Part shown: in pieces, positions 42,001 through 48,000 of the stretch
Layout of the letters: each line of letters starts with the position of its first letter
Numbering within the stretch: position 1 is the stretch's first letter
Source: Oceanispirochaeta sp.
GTDB taxonomy: Bacteria; Spirochaetota; Spirochaetia; DSM-2461
DNA: 64,000 nucleotides
Reading direction: 5' to 3'
Assembly: GCA_963666275.2 (NCBI GenBank)
Contig: CAXXOA010000001.1
Location: forward strand, 832,001-896,000
Program-made: the position numbers

Positions 42001-45000
42001 TCTCCGTATATCACAGTCAGTATCGGTATTTCCTGCGGTCCCCTGACTTACTCCAGAGAATTTGCTGAACAGCTTATTGTTACGGCGGACGAGGCCCTCT
42101 ACAGGTCCAAAAAAGAGGGACGCAACAGACAGACTCTCAGTAACAGCTGCCCTTCCGAATAAAAAAATCCTTTTGCAGAAGAGTTTTTTCTCAGAAAAAT
42201 AACAACAATTATGTAGAAAATAAAAATCTTTATTTTTATCCTCAGAAGAGAAAAATTTTCTCTATGATAACCGGCAGAAAATTTTTATGCATTTTAAAAT
42301 GATACTCTGAAATAAAATAGAAATATCTGGCAGTCGTTTTTTTGTGAAGTAATAAAGGAATAATCATATATTAAACAGGGGCCGGCTGTTTTTTTCTTAT
42401 TCTACCGGCCTGGAAAGATATTGTAATTTTTTTACTTCCTTGGTTAAAATCTAGCATGTCTGACATCTTGCGGGACTGTCAGAAGAAATTCCATGTGCAG
42501 ACATTGAGGACGGGAAGCCTGTTCGTACCAAGAGTACCGGGGTCGCACTATACACTACAAAGATTTACCGGTTACGGGGTCTGGTGGCTGTTGCATGGAA
42601 GTTCCTTTATCTCAACCCACGACAGCAAACCTCTCTCTTCCGGTGAGTATTCAGTTGAAAACTGGAGGATGTGCATGGTAGAGAACTATCTGGAATTAAC
42701 AAAAAGAATACATCAGGGAGAAGCCCAGTCCAAAGAGGATTGGGACTTCCGTATCATTGAGACGGTTCAGTCTCTGGTGGAAAAATACAGCCTGAGCTGG
42801 AACCGGGAGGAGCTGTGCTCCGAAGACGATGATCTGGCCGACCGGGTGTTTCAGGCAGGAAGAGAACTGCTCCTGACAACCGGAGTCTACGCTCTTTCCG
42901 AGGGCAGAGTTCTGCTCCTGGGAGAAGAGGAAGTGGACAGGGCCATGAAAGGGATGAATAAAACCCTGGTTATGGGAGAAGGCAAAGACAGCTACTCACT
43001 GGCTCCCCGGAAGGTCTGCGATACCAGGCCGCCTGCTGTCTGGGCGGGAAACCCCGGTGTCCCCACACCGGAAAGGCTATTCAAAGCGACTGTAAAAAGC
43101 TGGGCCCGGGAGAGCGTGGTGGATCTGATCACCTGCGGATCTCTTGTGGATGTGGACGGCTATAAGGTCGAATCCGGAGAGGTGAGCGAACTGCTGGCTT
43201 CACGGCGGGAACTGGAGCTGCTGAAACAGGTCCGGGAAGAGGTAGGCCGACCCGGAATGGGAATGCTTGCCGCAGAGAGCAGTGTCACCGAAATCGGTGA
43301 CCTGGCTGCAACCCACCCGGATCTGCTGCGTCCCTGTGATTCCCATCTGGTAGCCATGTTCAATGAGCTTATGATTGACCGGGGGAATATGGTCCGGGCG
43401 GCCAACTCCCTTTTCTACGGTATGGCCAATGCCTCTCTGGCGACTGTTATGGTCGGGGGTCTCGCAGGAGATGCTCACGGTGCCGCCATTGCGCAGGTTG
43501 CCTCTTTTCTGGCGGCGAACATTATCTGTCTGGCCGATTATCATCTGTGCCATCCCATTCATATACAGCATGTGGCCACTTCCACCAGAGGATGCCTCTG
43601 GCTGGAGAGCATTGTCTGTCAGGCCTTTGCCAGGAACGCACCGGCTATCATTGTCTGCGATATCTATCCCAAGAGCGGGGCAGTGACAAAAGAGCTCCTT
43701 TATGAGGTGGCAGCCAATGCCCTGGCGGCCTCAGTCAGCGGGGGCCACCTGGAAGGGGTCGGTTCCGCTGATGGAAGCCTGCCTCACGGAACCGGTCTGG
43801 AAGTCAGGCTGATGGGAGAAGTCGGACATGCCGCTGCGGGACTCAGCCGCAGCAGGGCCAATGGGATCATTCTGGAACTCCTGAAAAAATATGAACATGT
43901 TTTTGATCTGCCCGGAGGAAATCCCGGACTTCCTTTCGATCAGGCTTACGACATGGATACCCTGACACCCTCCCCTGAGTGGGAAGCAATGTACAATTCC
44001 GTCAGAAAAGAACTTGTTTCTCTGGGTCTGCCCCTGAAGTAAAAGTGGAAACCCCGTCCCGGTGGGGACTGGATATAAAACGTATAGGAGAAAAGAAATG
44101 GTTGTCTACACGATTTTCAATGTGGCGGTAGTTATCGTCCTCGGTCTGGTTGCCCGTTTCACCAGTAAAAATGTGGTGGAAAAAGAGAGTAAGGGATACA
44201 CAACCCAGAATCTGGTCATTGTGGCCGTACTGGCTGCGATCGCCGGTGTTATCAACACAGGGATGGGAAATATCTGGTATCTGGCCAACACCTCTCTGGG
44301 ACCTCTGGGGGGAGCCCTGATTCAGGGGATGTTCATGTGGGCCTATATTCTGGCGGCTTTTATGGTAAGAAAACCCGGCGTGGCTCTGGCTTTCGGTATT
44401 ATCGAGTCGGCTACCGAGGTTATTCTGGGAAATGCCGCGGGAATCGGAACTCTCGGATGGGGAATCTCCCAGGGACTGGCCATTGAAGCCATTCTTCTTA
44501 TCTGCTCCTATAGACGTTTCGGTCTGGTTGCGGCGCTGATGGCGGGTATCGCCTCCTCACAGTTCGGTACTCTCTGGAGTTCCGTCTTCTACGGATGGGA
44601 TCCCTCCTATTCAAAGGACGTCTGGATGGCCGTTCCCATCAACATGATCTCCGGTGCCGTTTTCAGCGGTGGTCTGGGATACTTCCTGGCAACGAAAATT
44701 GCCAGAACAGGCCTGGTCCGTTCGTCCAGAGCCTAAAAAATAGCATTTGAAATAGGCGGCAGGTTTTCCTGCCGCAAGGCAAAGGATGCAGAATATGTCT
44801 GATATAGTTCAGCTGAAAAATGTTTCATTTCGATTTCAGGATAAAGAAAATCCTGTTCTGAAGGATCTTACTTTCTCCCTGAAAAAAGGATCCTTCAATA
44901 TCCTTGTCGGTCCCGGCGGGAGCGGAAAATCCACTCTCTGCAAGGTTCTGGACGGCCGGATCCCCCATCTCATTCCCGGGACTCTGGAGGGGCAGGTCCT

Positions 45001-48000
45001 TCTGGAGGGACGATCCACATCAGAAATCGCAATGAAAGATATTTCCTGCTGTGTGGGGTCAGTGTTTCAGGACCCCGAAACCATGTTTGCCACCCTGTCC
45101 GTGGAAGATGAGATCGCCTTCGGGCCGGAAAATCTTCTCCATCATAGGGATAAGATTCTCAGGGATGTGGATGAACTGCTTGAAATGACAGGAATCGGTC
45201 TTTACAGGCACAATCTTGTATGGAATCTGTCGGGTGGTCAGATCCAGAAACTGGGACTCGCAGCGGTTCTGGCCATGGAGCCCCGGCTGATTATTCTGGA
45301 TGAACCCACAGCCAACCTGGACCCGGCTGCTACCCGGCAGGTGCATGAGCTGATCCTGACTCTGAGGGAGAAGGGCATGACAGTGCTTCTTGTGACCAGA
45401 GAACTGGATGATTTTATGGCAGAAGCCGACAGTGTGCTTGTTCTCAGAGAAGGATCTCTTGCTTATCAGGATGAGCCCTACAGCCTTCTGAAAGAGCATG
45501 GCTGTGATATGGAGAGCCTGGGGATCTGGCTGCCTGAAACTGTAGAGATCGGTCTGGGGCTCCTGAGGACAAACCATCCTCTTGAAAGGATCCCCATTAC
45601 CGTGGATGAAACTATTGCGCTTCTGGATTCTCTGAATCTCTGTCCTCCCGGTACGGAACTCACAGGACGGCCGGATGCAGAGACAAGCTCAGAGTCCGCC
45701 CTGATCCGGGGCCGTAACATCAAGTTCAGCTACGGAGGCGGACTGTATGCATTAAAGGGGATCGACCTTGAAATCCGGGAAGGAGAGATGCTTGCCATTG
45801 TGGGAAGAAACGGAGCCGGCAAGAGTACCATGGCCAGACTGCTTATCGGATTAAACAAGTGCCGGGAAGGGGAACTGACCCTTTTCGGCAAAGCTTCGGA
45901 GAAATGGAAAGTTCCCGATCTTGCCAATCATATCTCTCTGGTTTTTCAGAATCCGGAACACCAGTTTCTTACGGATACTGTTGCCGAAGAGATCGAATAC
46001 AGTCTCCAGTCCCAGGTGGTATTCGACACAGAGGAAATCTCCACCCGGAGAGATGAAATACTGGAAATGCTGAATCTTCAGAATGAGAAAGACAGTCATC
46101 CCTTTGCCCTGAGTGCTGGGAATAAACGGAGACTGGGGGTTGCTACCATGCTCGTGGGCGACCCCGGGGTTCTGATCGTGGATGAACCTACCTACGGGCA
46201 GGACAAGGAGATGACAAGCACCCTTATGAAGCTCATGACAGATATCCGGGCCAGAGGGATCGCGGTAGTCATGATCAGTCATGATATGCGGCTGGTTGCG
46301 GAATATGCCGACAGGGTCGTGGTTTTCAGCGAAGGAAAAAAGCATTTTGACGGATTACCCACGGAGCTTTTCAGTAAATCGGATATTCTCGACAAGGCCA
46401 GCCTCCAGCCAACCCTGCTGTTTCAGATCCTTCAGAAACTGTCCCGAAAAGGGGTCCTCTGTTCCGGAAATATCCCCGGCACCGATGCTCTTCTTAAAAT
46501 GCTCGTAGATCCGGTGGAGGTTTGATATGGCTGAAAATTTTCTGAGTTTCAAAGAGAGACGTTCCTATCTCAACCGGGTTTATCCTCTTGTAAAACTAAT
46601 CTGGGTGTTCTGCGTGGCCGTAGGACTTTTTCTATTTAAAAGTTCTCTCCCCGGGGCGGTTATGTTCATATATATTCTGTTTCTGGCCCTGGCGGGAGGA
46701 AAAATCTCACTCCGGGAGATCCTGAGAAGCGGGATCGTGGTTTTCGGACTGGGGTTTCTTCTGATGCTGTTCCATTTTTTCATCGATCCCGGTCAGGTGG
46801 TCTGGTCTCTGGGATTCCTCACAGTTACCGATACGGGACTTCTCCAGGGGCCTGTCTTCTTTTTCCGGCTTTCTGTCATTGTTCTTGCCAGTTTCATACT
46901 GATCTGGTCCACTGATACCCGGGACCTGATGACCTCTCTTGTAAAGGCGGGTATGCCCTACAGATACGCCTATACGATCTTTCTGGCCCTGAGATTTCTA
47001 CCACTGATACAGAAAGAGGTGGAGTCCGTGAAAGCGGCCCATGCCATAAGAGGAAAAGCCGGGGGATCCAATATGGCTCACCGTTTCAAGCTATGGCAGA
47101 GGTATGTATTCACCATCCTGATCAACGGGATTCGCAAGGCCGAATCCACCGCAGATGCTCTGGAATGCCGGGCTTTCGGCTTCAGTGATAAAAGAACCTA
47201 TGTTAAGGATGTAAATTTCAGGAAACGGGATCTGATCCTGCTGCTGTTTACCCTGCTGCTTGAGATTCTTCTGGTCCTTTTAGACCGGGGGATAATCCTG
47301 TAATTCCCCCTCCTCTCATAGATCTCAGAGAAGGGGAGATGATCCGGATCTGTATTTAATAAAGAGACAGAACCGGAGCTGTGTTCTGTTAAAGTGCCAG
47401 TTTGAGAATTTCCCGTACATCCTGTTTTTTCAGTTTTTTGAAATTTCCCAGCTGCACCGTATCACCGTAGGTGGCTTTTTCAGCCATATCTTCTATGGCT
47501 GACTGATCAATGTCAATTTCCGAGAGTCTGATGGGAAGACCCATTTCCCTATAGAACTTTTCCAGGGCTTCGATACCCGCCATTACCAGTTCGTCATCGT
47601 AATAGACATCCGGCTGAATATCAAAGACTCTGGTGGCAAACTGTCTGAAACGCCGGGGGTTATCCCGGCTGACATATTTCATCCAGGCGGGGAAGACAAT
47701 ACTCAAACCTGCACCGTGTGCCACATCGTTAAAGGCCGAGAGTTCATGCTCAATCTGGTGGGATCCCCAGTCGCCGGTCCGTCCGGTATGGAGGATATCT
47801 CCGTGGGCTATGGCCCCGCACCACATAATTTCTGCTCTCACATTGTAGTCTTTGGGATGCAGGCGGACCCGCAGTCCCTGGTTAATAATGGTTTTCATTG
47901 TGCCTTCGCATAAGCGGTCGGTCAGTTCCACATACTGGTCATTGGTAAAATACCTCTCCATTGTATGGGCCAGCATATCCGAGACACCGCAGGCGGTCTG

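Follow-up and report, generated by a model that had tools for sequence, protein, structure and literature searches.

A pyrrolysine-free MtmB homologue beside nucleobase-type importers: a candidate corrinoid-dependent demethylase of imported methyladenine

Activation of methylamine by the methyltransferase MtmB needs pyrrolysine. What, then, is the function of an MtmB homologue that lacks it and is encoded next to a transporter in a spirochaete? Such a gene lies in the window analysed here, i.e. 64,000 nt of an Oceanispirochaeta sp. genome that is 97% complete. The genome-wide survey's note had proposed that its product acts not on methylamine but on a methylated amino-purine or amino-pyrimidine. 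Our best reading is that proteins of this clade are corrinoid-dependent demethylases of an imported N-methyladenine, of which the isomer is not singled out, and we would give this about an even chance of being correct.

The MtmB-family gene and its operon

The 455-aa product begins at an ATG with GGAGGA just 5′ to it on the + strand by ORF calling; a longer ORF of 528 aa from 42456 is an in-frame extension across the non-coding leader (Table 1). A Pfam search places the protein in the MtmB family over its full length (PF05369; E 7.6e-93, 312 bits, profile positions 5-450 of 450), and the nearest solved structure is M. barkeri MtmB (1L2Q/1NTH; E 1.4e-61, residues 11-452 aligned). The pyrrolysine X202 of that structure is aligned with L198, encoded by CTT at 43266-43268. 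No stop codon is present within the reading frame of 42675-44042, so this is the full-length homologue without in-frame UAG that had been described. L198 is invariant across the 28 clade members compared, as are 130 further positions, and the full-length barrel is at least 60% conserved between phyla in the clade alignment. Residues E229, E259 and Q333 of 1NTH, which we take to be contacts of the pyrrolysine, are aligned with L225, T257 and D329. The homologues number 1273, of which the best 120 are 59-93% identical, reproducing the earlier counts.

The genome contains a single MtmB match. It has no match to PylS, while the best match to PylD reaches 21 bits where the cut-off is 150, in agreement with the reported absence of pyl genes; MttB (PF06253) was not found in this genome either. 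The protein is not an MtmB in the strict sense. A UAG-encoded pyrrolysine is replaced by leucine in all 28 members, the Pyl machinery (PylS and PylD) was not found in the genome at the completeness given, and there is no adjacent MtmC, no corrinoid protein being encoded between 38000 and 52000 of the window. The invariant leucine and the failure to find PylS and PylD argue that the substrate is not methylamine.

Table 1. Features of the operon and its leader (positions in the window)
Feature	Position	Strand	Basis
Conserved structured 5′ leader (model R1), candidate riboswitch/regulatory RNA	42486..42603	+	Covariation, distribution
Pyrrolysine-free MtmB-family protein, proposed substrate:corrinoid methyltransferase (MT1)	42675..44042	+	PF05369, 1L2Q match
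ECF S component, YkoE-like	44062..44736	+	PF09819 E 9.4e-26; YkoE 5EDL E 6.3e-16
Fused double ECF ATPase (A-A′)	44786..46525	+	Two ABC_tran domains; TIGR04520, TIGR04521
ECF T component (CbiQ family)	46527..47303	+	PF02361 E 4.6e-35

Directly downstream are the S component, fused double ATPase and T component of the YkoE-like ECF transporter that the survey had placed in this operon. The three genes are co-oriented with gaps of 1-49 nt, the T component starting 2 nt past the ATPase stop codon, and this is the group-I ECF layout of the YkoEDC type. The S component is the only match in the genome to ABC_cobalt (PF09819); alignment with nine orthologues indicates that its true start is likely to be ATG 44098 rather than the GTG 44062 of the ORF. 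The ATPase scores above cut-off with both TIGR04520 (397 bits) and TIGR04521 (384 bits), i.e. NCBIfam ECF_ATPase_1 and ECF_ATPase_2. Contacts made by YkoE to the aminopyrimidine are kept in the S component (W49 as F91, E77 as E119 and Q95 as Q137) and are invariant in ten orthologues, whereas those to the thiazole are lost (Y46 is Q88 and D131 is S173). There is no Rfam match to a TPP riboswitch at the locus. With the thiazole contacts replaced, specificity for thiamine or HMP is not indicated, although the pyrimidine contacts are retained.

The leader of ~118 nt is newly found here. It ends 72 nt 5′ of the MtmB start codon, has no match in Rfam, and its core is invariant among the spirochaete loci. 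The R1 model has 18 matches (16 distinct; 69-113 bits), every one of them upstream of an MtmB homologue, so that a conserved and covarying structure precedes a single class of gene. In the R1 alignment 94.9% of cells are paired, compared with 31-44% when partners are slid, and six pairs have compensatory changes; since the sequences were fitted to the model for this alignment and all belong to one order, the support from covariation is moderate. Among 38 genomes of the order, 12 have the MtmB gene and exactly these have the leader, making it a candidate riboswitch. We propose that the four genes and the leader constitute one import-and-demethylate operon.

Neighbouring genes in five phyla

We collected 81 loci of the clade, with members 60-93% identical from five phyla, the neighbouring genes being called with a crude ORF caller of our own and clustered by BLAST. 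An importer gene is found at ±1 in 59 of the 81 loci (a Bmp ABC transporter in 33, a 520-aa carrier in 16 and an ECF transporter in 10); many loci are from related Lachnospiraceae, so these raw counts overstate independence. The 520-aa carrier belongs to no Pfam family and has the UraA fold. The presence of three unrelated importers at the same position points to a small imported substrate. In 13 loci there is no importer, adenine deaminase (Ade), adenine phosphoribosyltransferase (Apt), corrinoid protein or RACo among the neighbours. The classes of neighbour are those of the earlier note, now seen at higher frequency in 80 independently collected loci. We note that pseudouridine catabolism genes lie upstream in locus L082, and that NUDIX and cytidylate-kinase-like genes are near MtmB in some others.

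Ade (TIGR01178, 537 bits against a cut-off of 472) is no more than seven genes away in 15 of the 81 loci, which fall into at least seven tree-separated groups in three phyla with six gene orders. Apt, scoring above the cut-offs of equivalog models, is the first gene of a Bmp-MtmB block in 4/81 loci. The gene order of L087 is GntR, corrinoid protein, MtmB, Ade, xanthine dehydrogenase; the last of these is seen in this one locus of the 81. Within seven genes, Ade or Apt is found alongside a Bmp transporter or the 520-aa carrier, and also in L016 and L087, where no transporter is seen, but never alongside an ECF operon like that of the window in the 81 loci. The Ade of the Oceanispirochaeta genome is located away from MtmB, accompanied by a xanthine/uracil permease and a Bmp transporter of its own. 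For the window, therefore, it is orthology (60-74% identity) and the residues of the S component that provide the connection to adenine.

The Bmp binding protein has AtzT (6PI5, E 1.9e-34) and 3S99 as its best solved relatives. In the part of PMC6834077 available to us the ligands of AtzT are guanine, adenine and the N-alkylated 2-hydroxyatrazine, whereas GTP is not bound; adenine is modelled in 3S99. Judged by sequence, the Bmp protein groups with purine-base binders and not with nucleoside binders.

A pyrrolysine-free relative of MtmB lying beside importers and adenine-handling genes in five phyla probably demethylates an imported methylated adenine. To this extent the substrate proposed by the survey is strengthened, by Apt, xanthine dehydrogenase, the purine-base kinship of the Bmp protein, the YkoE contacts, the third importer (16 loci) and the occurrence of Ade in at least seven branches. 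Its example of N6-methyladenine is not set apart from 1-, 3- or 7-methyladenine, N6,N6-dimethyladenine or other methylated bases, and 13 of the 81 loci have no informative neighbour. Unless N1 carries a proton, an exocyclic N6-methyl group makes a poor leaving-group substrate. The known pyrrolysine-free relatives use quaternary amines (PMC13044021, in part), which speaks for the cationic ring-N-methyl isomers or else for another substrate.

Such a substrate might be another imported methylated N-heterocycle (7-methylguanine, methylxanthines, N4-methylcytosine, or an HMP/bacimethrin-like methyl or methoxy pyrimidine) used by a corrinoid-dependent MT1, the adenine enzymes being general purine-salvage surroundings. 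Thiamine and HMP are known YkoE ligands, nucleotide and modified-nucleoside genes occur nearby in the loci mentioned above, and the Ade and Bmp genes that cluster without MtmB in the Oceanispirochaeta genome suggest that Ade could be the companion of the transporter; moreover AtzT-type binding proteins bind guanine tighter than adenine (PMC6834077, same part). Yet Ade directly adjoins MtmB without a Bmp transporter in L016, L060, L087 and the Robinsoniella group (which has the 520-aa carrier), the equivalog models identify Apt as adenine-specific, and no guanine or cytosine deaminase or xanthine-specific gene recurs beside MtmB in the loci, L087 excepted. We therefore consider a substrate of this kind rather unlikely.

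The deaminase could also supply methylamine. The closest solved relative of the neighbouring Ade is Atu4426 (3NQB, E 4.3e-63), whose relatives Bh0637 and Bsu06560 release methylamine from N6-methyladenine or N6-methyladenosine (PMC8643624, from the portion available). It is conceivable that the Ade homologue, too, is an N6-methyladenine deaminase and that the pyrrolysine-free MtmB still uses methylamine. Against this, the deaminase is found in just 15 of the 81 loci compared with 59 having an adjacent importer, the pyrrolysine and its presumed contacts are replaced as described above, Apt would have no role in such a pathway, and Amt-type methylammonium transporters are not recurrent among the neighbours. 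We regard it as the least probable of the alternatives.

In chemical terms, no substrates are easier for Co(I) to attack than quaternary amines. The neighbouring transporters might carry tetramethylammonium, choline or a related osmolyte, demethylated in the manner of MtqB; in what is accessible of PMC13044021, MtqB (tetramethylammonium, choline) is the only pyrrolysine-free MtmB whose function has been demonstrated, and its gene adjoins that of its corrinoid protein MtqC. The window gene does not adjoin a corrinoid protein gene, however. BCCT, OpuA-type and choline-related genes are not recurrent in the 81 loci; the importers that do recur there belong to the purine-base and aminopyrimidine types, and Ade, Apt and xanthine dehydrogenase would have no role. 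Demethylation of a quaternary amine is improbable on these grounds.

A possible corrinoid partner encoded elsewhere

A corrinoid protein is encoded near MtmB in three of the 81 loci: immediately upstream in L083 and L087, four genes upstream in L018. RACo is nearby in two (L083 and L085), and in Chloroflexota loci a corrinoid protein is directly upstream, with RACo. The other 78 neighbourhoods contain no corrinoid protein, and no MT2 gene is adjacent to MtmB in the window. This would be consistent with a former methyltransferase that is now a corrinoid-free TIM-barrel hydrolase, isomerase or ligand-binding protein for the imported compound. The Chloroflexota loci argue otherwise, as do the conservation of the full-length barrel over phyla and the corrinoid proteins in trans: small ones are encoded in all five other genomes tested, and thus in 6/6 with that of Oceanispirochaeta.

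The single small MtxC-like corrinoid protein of the Oceanispirochaeta genome (211 aa; B12-binding and B12-binding_2 domains) is encoded on another contig (C2:2265534-2266169), adjoining RACo and a PocR/AraC regulator, and the survey was right in placing it outside the operon. There are also 12 URO-D matches in the genome, 11 of them above cut-off. All the parts of a three-component methyltransferase are thus present: a corrinoid protein, a reductive activase and candidates for MT2.

Complex prediction for MtmB with the 211-aa corrinoid protein of the same genome gave 0.71, compared with 0.01 for the best control. The mark was reached by 116/157 solved complexes and 2/215 mismatched pairs, a calibration that is only rough because self-made alignments were used in the prediction. 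The contacts agree between runs to 90% or more, and the pLDDT of the corrinoid protein is at least 86. In the predicted interface, which includes corrinoid protein residues 97-103 with the D-x-H-x-x-G loop, the cofactor loop is set against conserved barrel-top loops of MtmB; this too is at odds with a corrinoid-free function, which we judge to be even less probable than that of a quaternary amine demethylase. Solved methyltransferase:corrinoid complexes exist, and the pass may come from resemblance to these; it is a prediction and not a demonstration of binding. Corrinoid dependence is supported by the upstream corrinoid genes (two loci), RACo (two loci) and the predicted complex.

Proposed pathway and comparison with known systems

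For demethylation of an N-methyladenine we envisage the following. The group-I ECF transporter would import the methylated base, a role taken in other phyla by the purine-base-type Bmp ABC transporter or the 520-aa UraA-fold carrier. The MtmB-family TIM-barrel would hold the base at the site of methylamine in pyrrolysine-containing MtmB, and the methyl group would pass to the Co(I) form of the small corrinoid protein, kept reduced by the RACo encoded next to it. A URO-D/MtaA-like protein would hand the methyl group onward, probably to tetrahydrofolate, and the adenine product could be salvaged by Apt or deaminated to hypoxanthine by Ade. In the spirochaete clade the leader probably turns expression on when the substrate is present. 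The first function claimed for the non-Pyl MtmB family in the survey stands as a hypothesis and not as a result; if true, this would be a new anaerobic route for the recycling of modified nucleobases.

The window protein shares with Methanosarcina MtmB (1NTH/1L2Q) its Pfam family over the full length, the aligned TIM-barrel, and a corrinoid protein of cognate type in the genome that is predicted to dock. It differs in having leucine for pyrrolysine in a genome without pyl genes, and in lying amid bacterial importer and purine-salvage genes with no adjacent MtmC or MtbA.

MtqB of Methanococcoides is likewise a pyrrolysine-free MtmB-family protein that works with a corrinoid protein, as a tetramethylammonium/choline:corrinoid methyltransferase. 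The accessible sections of PMC13044021 describe it as archaeal, encoded next to MtqC and using quaternary amines for methanogenesis, with Met/Cys pocket residues conserved in its clade. The present clade differs in its gene neighbours, which are importers of purine-base and aminopyrimidine type together with Ade and Apt. Anaerobic bacteria including gut acetogens contain the pyrrolysine-free MttB superfamily enzymes MtgB, MtcB, MtpB and MtyB (PMC13044021 and PMC13080624, both in part). These too are pyrrolysine-free members of a pyrrolysine family that feed corrinoid proteins from new methylated substrates, but they belong to PF06253, absent from the Oceanispirochaeta genome, have betaines as substrates and are usually encoded with corrinoid protein and MT2 genes.

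The layout of S component, fused double ATPase and T component is that of YkoEDC, the group-I ECF thiamine/HMP transporter of Bacillus subtilis (5EDL), and the homologous S component keeps the aminopyrimidine-ring residues. Unlike YkoEDC, the window operon has no TPP riboswitch and its thiazole-binding residues are replaced; the transporter of this clade is always paired with MtmB, and the conserved leader RNA upstream is a different one.

The AlkB family requires O2. Like the AlkB/FTO-type oxidative demethylases and the N6-methyladenine deaminase 6-MAD (Bh0637 and Bsu06560), the proposed route would return methylated adenine to the purine pool. By contrast with 6-MAD, which hydrolytically removes methylamine to leave hypoxanthine, it would do so by O2-independent methyl transfer, with retention of the methyl group and adenine as product.

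The MtmB operon

Four closely packed ORFs lie on the + strand of the window (table). The first encodes a full-length MtmB-family protein, and the next three encode a dedicated (group I) ECF transporter. Residues 11-452 of the MtmB homologue align with Methanosarcina barkeri MtmB (1L2Q/1NTH; E 1.4e-61), placing Leu198 opposite the pyrrolysine (Pyl; X202 in the chain). The host genome (5.27 Mb, 97% complete) contains one MtmB gene and one PF09819 gene; in it MttB is absent, PylS gives zero matches and no PylD match lies near the cut-off. The genome-wide survey's note had described a full-length, Pyl-free MtmB in an operon with an ECF transporter, and this was confirmed at every point checked. 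The protein has 1273 homologues, the best 120 being 59-93% identical to it. Some relatives of the same order also encode MtmB-family paralogues that are distant from the window protein (27-32% identity).

Features of the window and of related loci (G000, host genome; L090 and L091, loci of the host genome; other L numbers, loci around clade MtmB genes in other genomes; G163 and G167, same-order relatives)
Feature	Position	Strand	Assignment
In-frame extension 5′ of MtmB (219 nt)	42456-42674	+	
Conserved leader block (about 118 nt)	42486-42603	+	
MtmB-family protein, full length	42675-44042	+	PF05369, E 7.6e-93 (Pfam)
Leu198 codon (CTT)	43266-43268	+	
YkoE-like ECF S component	44062-44736	+	PF09819
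Fused double ECF ATPase	44786-46525	+	TIGR04520 and TIGR04521, both above cut-offs
CbiQ-type ECF T component	46527-47303	+	Pfam
Sigma-54 activator, C-terminal end only (157 aa)	49105-49578	+	AAA lid and HTH_8
ORF with tandem FEAVDK(R/H) repeat and C-terminal hydrophobic segment (157 aa)	49641-50114	+	No Pfam family
RecQ-like helicase ORF with early end (323 aa)	50202-51173	+	
Purine cluster (L091)	G000 C2:943067-951795		
Corrinoid protein module (L090)	G000 C2:2265534-2269705		
Genes directly 5′ of MtmB-ECF	L082:5582-9467		
T-box	L024:3294-3557		Rfam
MtmB-family paralogue	G167:C288:8106-9452		
MtmB-family paralogue	G167:C143:7800-9125		
MtmB-family paralogue	G163:C2:2826202-2827557		

We note that the MtmB frame is open 5′ of the start, giving a 528-aa ORF. 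Homologues begin at the position equivalent to 42675 and do not share the extension; the longer ORF is an in-frame run over a non-coding leader that includes the conserved RNA element, and automatic annotation may overextend the gene to 42456. Beyond the operon, the sigma-54 activator and RecQ-like ORFs both look truncated or frameshifted, and a third ORF lies between them.

The leader RNA

When the sequences upstream of MtmB in the spirochaete loci are aligned, a block stands out that is far more conserved than its flanks. A model of this leader (R1) was built from an assigned structure of four helices, comprising P1, which closes the element, P2, an inner hairpin that is invariant, and P3, whose loop varies. 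There is one copy of R1 in the host genome, and in the host's order copies are found in 12 of 38 genomes, exactly the 12 that have the MtmB clade. No match was found in the other 74 MtmB loci, or in a sample of 150 further Spirochaetota genomes from across the phylum. Thirty metagenome loci were fetched with an 18-nt core pattern; four have full elements, one has a copy cut off by the contig end, three give weak partial matches and the remaining 22 have no R1 match at E<=1. An MtmB homologue lies just downstream of all 18 R1 matches (16 distinct), joined by an ECF S gene in the four metagenome loci with the full element.

In the model-fitted alignment, which leans towards the model and is drawn from one order, 94.9% of cells are paired compared with 31-44% when the partners are slid. 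Six pairs undergo compensatory change (e.g. AU 7 / GC 7 and UA 8 / CG 7), and the inner hairpin exhibits no covariation at all. Because of the leaning and the single order, support for the conserved leader as a regulatory RNA is moderate; it is a good candidate for a new cis-regulatory RNA, and possibly a riboswitch for the substrate of the operon. The leader offers a second, independent handle; if a riboswitch, it should have a ligand that names the substrate.

At E<=1 Rfam gave no match in window 39000-50000; at E<=10 the miRNA and snoRNA matches in window 42440-42700, the only ones there, were at chance level; at the gathering score the T-box in L024 was the sole match among 16 related loci. 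In these scans of the window and the 16 loci, no riboswitch of a known class accounts for the operons. In the window the start region is calculated to be masked by the 5′ strand of P1/P2 with -12.3 kcal/mol, compared with -6.9 +/- 2.0 kcal/mol for shuffles (0/200). Masking is clearly better than that of shuffles in the window only, the shuffle fraction being <=0.1 in 6 of 16 loci. The single-sequence fold of leader plus platform is uninformative (z-score -0.09), and a promoter and terminator scan gave counts at chance level. In three loci of different lineages (L031, L042 and L088) the MtmB operon is preceded by a PAS-containing sigma-54 activator, which may be its dedicated regulator where there is no leader RNA.

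Neighbouring importers and adenine enzymes

An alignment of 28 of the best 120 homologues was used to fetch 80 loci from species-representative genomes. Of these, 8 are from Spirochaetota, 4 from Thermodesulfobacteriota or 'delta', 6 from Planctomycetota, 5 from Chloroflexota and 56 from Bacillota (mostly Lachnospiraceae), and one is unnamed; the window counts as the 81st. Genes were called by a simple longest-ORF rule and clustered by BLASTP, and the clusters were named by Pfam and NCBIfam; calls and clusters are rough. Within seven genes of MtmB in these 81 loci, many of which are related Lachnospiraceae, there is a Bmp-type ABC transporter in 39, a 520-aa membrane protein of no family in 16, adenine deaminase (Ade) in 15, ECF S/AA/T in 12, adenine phosphoribosyltransferase (Apt) in four, a corrinoid protein in three and its reductive activase (RACo) in two. 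Thirteen loci have none of these neighbours, two of them being short contigs. A transporter gene is immediately beside MtmB in 59 of the 81. One Bmp assignment (L010) is based on the ATPase cluster alone, and that system is probably a sugar transporter. In a quick ML tree the MtmB genes broadly follow phyla, with the ECF type in Spirochaetota and Chloroflexota, the 520-aa carrier type in Planctomycetota, Vallitalea and several Lachnospiraceae groups, and the Bmp type in the delta lineage and most Bacillota.

The Bmp binding protein whose gene accompanies MtmB has AtzT (6PI5, E 1.9e-34) and 3S99 as its closest solved relatives. For AtzT, PMC6834077 reports binding at 0.11 uM for guanine, 2.5 uM for adenine and 2.2 uM for the N-alkylated 2-hydroxyatrazine, and none for GTP; in the structure of 3S99 an adenine is modelled. 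These relatives are base binders, not nucleoside binders. Given such ligands, a methylated heterocycle other than methyladenine is a possible substrate, if a rather doubtful one.

The S component of the window matches YkoE (5EDL, E 6.3e-16), for which PMC5037267 assigns W49, E77 and Q95 to stacking on and hydrogen bonding with the aminopyrimidine ring, and Y46 and D131 to thiazole contacts. With the chain numbering shifted by two against that of the paper, as deduced from the P-x-Y-G-x-W stretch, the first three correspond to F91, E119 and Q137, which are invariant in 10 S components of the MtmB-ECF operon type, and the thiazole contacts are replaced by Q88 and S173. Adenine includes a 4-aminopyrimidine ring, so that the retained contacts indirectly fit an adenine-type ligand.

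The 520-aa protein is encoded directly downstream of MtmB in L018, L022-L024, L031, L036, L044, L060, L061, L068-L070, L076, L077, L079 and L084; members are about 520 aa long and 50-90% identical across these 16 loci of two phyla. In six loci the next ORF encodes 87 aa and belongs to no family. Searches found no Pfam or NCBIfam family for the carrier, and a 13-sequence profile of it matched no PDB sequence. The nearest named protein-atlas cluster is the xanthine/uracil permease family (0.90), and the Foldseek matches of the low-confidence AlphaFold model are only 7+7 UraA-fold carriers (e.g. BicA, SLC26Dg, UapA and UraA; E 9e-5 to 3e-3, TM 0.3-0.48). Since the model is poor (pLDDT 55.5), the apparent UraA-fold likeness is only a lead; the protein is a probable secondary importer.

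Ade lies near MtmB in at least seven separated tree groups of three phyla and in six gene orders, i.e. directly upstream (L016, L060), directly downstream (L087), Ade-ABC-MtmB (Blautia), MtmB-ABC-Ade (L064, L067, L078), divergent (Robinsoniella group) and MtmB-carrier-Ade (L044). By our own estimate chance would place a single-copy gene within seven genes of another chosen gene in far fewer than 1% of genomes, so this recurrence is meaningful even allowing for relatedness. The neighbouring Ade scores above the equivalog cut-off of TIGR01178, and Apt above those of the Apt models; the substrate of both enzymes is free adenine. The L087 locus runs on into xanthine dehydrogenase subunits. Neither Ade nor Apt occurs within seven genes beside the ECF form carried by the window in the 81 loci. 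Away from the window, the host genome has a classical purine cluster of xanthine/uracil permease, adenine deaminase, nucleoside diphosphate kinase and Bmp ABC transporter genes. In L082 (Anaerolineaceae), genes for pseudouridine-5'-phosphate glycosidase-like, PfkB kinase, SIS and BtpA proteins precede MtmB-ECF, which hints at a wider locus for modified-nucleoside salvage.

The neighbouring deaminase is 39% identical to Ade of the host genome and its best PDB match is 3NQB, comparisons that do not separate ADE from N6-methyladenine deaminase (6-MAD) types. Relatives of adenine deaminase deaminate N6-methyladenine or N6-methyladenosine and free methylamine, as described in PMC8643624, and MtmB might act on that methylamine. 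But the leucine at the Pyl site is invariant, the coupling to importers is much wider than that to Ade, and Apt is among the neighbours; we regard such a role as very improbable. Read most economically, the genes would form an import-and-demethylate module for N-methylated adenine, a reading that could equally prove right or wrong. The importer would bring in the methylated base, Pyl-free MtmB would move the methyl group to a corrinoid protein, and the adenine product would pass to Apt or Ade.

Corrinoid proteins and the proposed demethylation

An MtxC-type corrinoid protein is encoded directly upstream of MtmB in L083 and L087 and four genes upstream in L018; RACo is present in L083 and L085, and a GntR/UTRA regulator in the three Chloroflexota loci. 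In L015 the fourth gene downstream of MtmB encodes a URO-D/B12-binding fusion. The only small corrinoid protein of the host genome (211 aa, D-x-H-x-x-G motif) has RACo and a PocR/AraC regulator as neighbours, and no methyltransferase gene; together they are an orphan carrier module. It may serve other enzymes too, since the genome has 12 URO-D-like matches (11 above cut-off). Small corrinoid proteins are encoded in each of the five other clade-bearing genomes examined, and because they are common in anaerobes this is weak support for corrinoid dependence.

The predicted complex of the window MtmB with the 211-aa protein scored 0.71 (runs of 0.71, 0.66 and 0.71), compared with 0.01 for the best control. 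Of 157 solved complexes 116 attain the mark for this score, as do 2 of 215 mismatched pairs; because our own alignments were supplied, these counts hold only roughly. The runs share at least 90% of contacts, and the pLDDT of the corrinoid partner is at least 86. The predicted interface includes partner residues 97-103, which contain the cofactor loop, and the conserved barrel-top loops 204-205, 229-230, 259-266 and 295-300 of MtmB. Methyltransferase:corrinoid complexes have already been solved, so the high score may stem from family likeness. As modelled, it supports rather than shows binding of the corrinoid protein by MtmB. In our judgement it is very unlikely that the clade protein has no methyltransferase activity of any kind.

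Pyl-free MtmB homologues number more than 1000 sequences, with a demonstrated function for archaeal MtqB only. PMC13044021 presents MtqB, which acts on tetramethylammonium/choline, as the first of these with a demonstrated function, that of the others in its tree being not known; in PMC9768040 a Pyl-free protein of the MtmB superfamily, to which no function is assigned, shows strong induction on dichloromethane. Quaternary amines could, as for MtqB, be the substrate here, and we think this unlikely. No link between the Pyl-free MtmB family and purines was found in the full-text literature searched, mostly outside subscription journals.

If methyladenine demethylation is correct, a large orphan family gains a testable function, anaerobic methylotrophy an added substrate class, and nucleic-acid turnover is tied to one-carbon metabolism in gut acetogens. 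In a bolder form, which we consider a long shot worth stating, the clade would be the first oxygen-independent, corrinoid-dependent demethylase of methyladenine from DNA and RNA turnover, yielding adenine and a methyl group that can be used; it would occur widely, both in Lachnospiraceae of the gut and in Spirochaetota, Chloroflexota, Planctomycetota and Desulfobacterota of sediments, and in spirochaetes it would be controlled by a new riboswitch class sensing the same base. Methylated nucleobases are abundant in bacterial DNA, rRNA and tRNA. To our knowledge their recycling by anaerobes is largely unknown, and the routes for methylated bases known to us are hydrolytic deamination or O2-dependent oxidation. 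Among the possible isomers, cationic ring-N-methyl adenines would by analogy be closer than N6-methyladenine to the quaternary amines of the known Pyl-free relatives.
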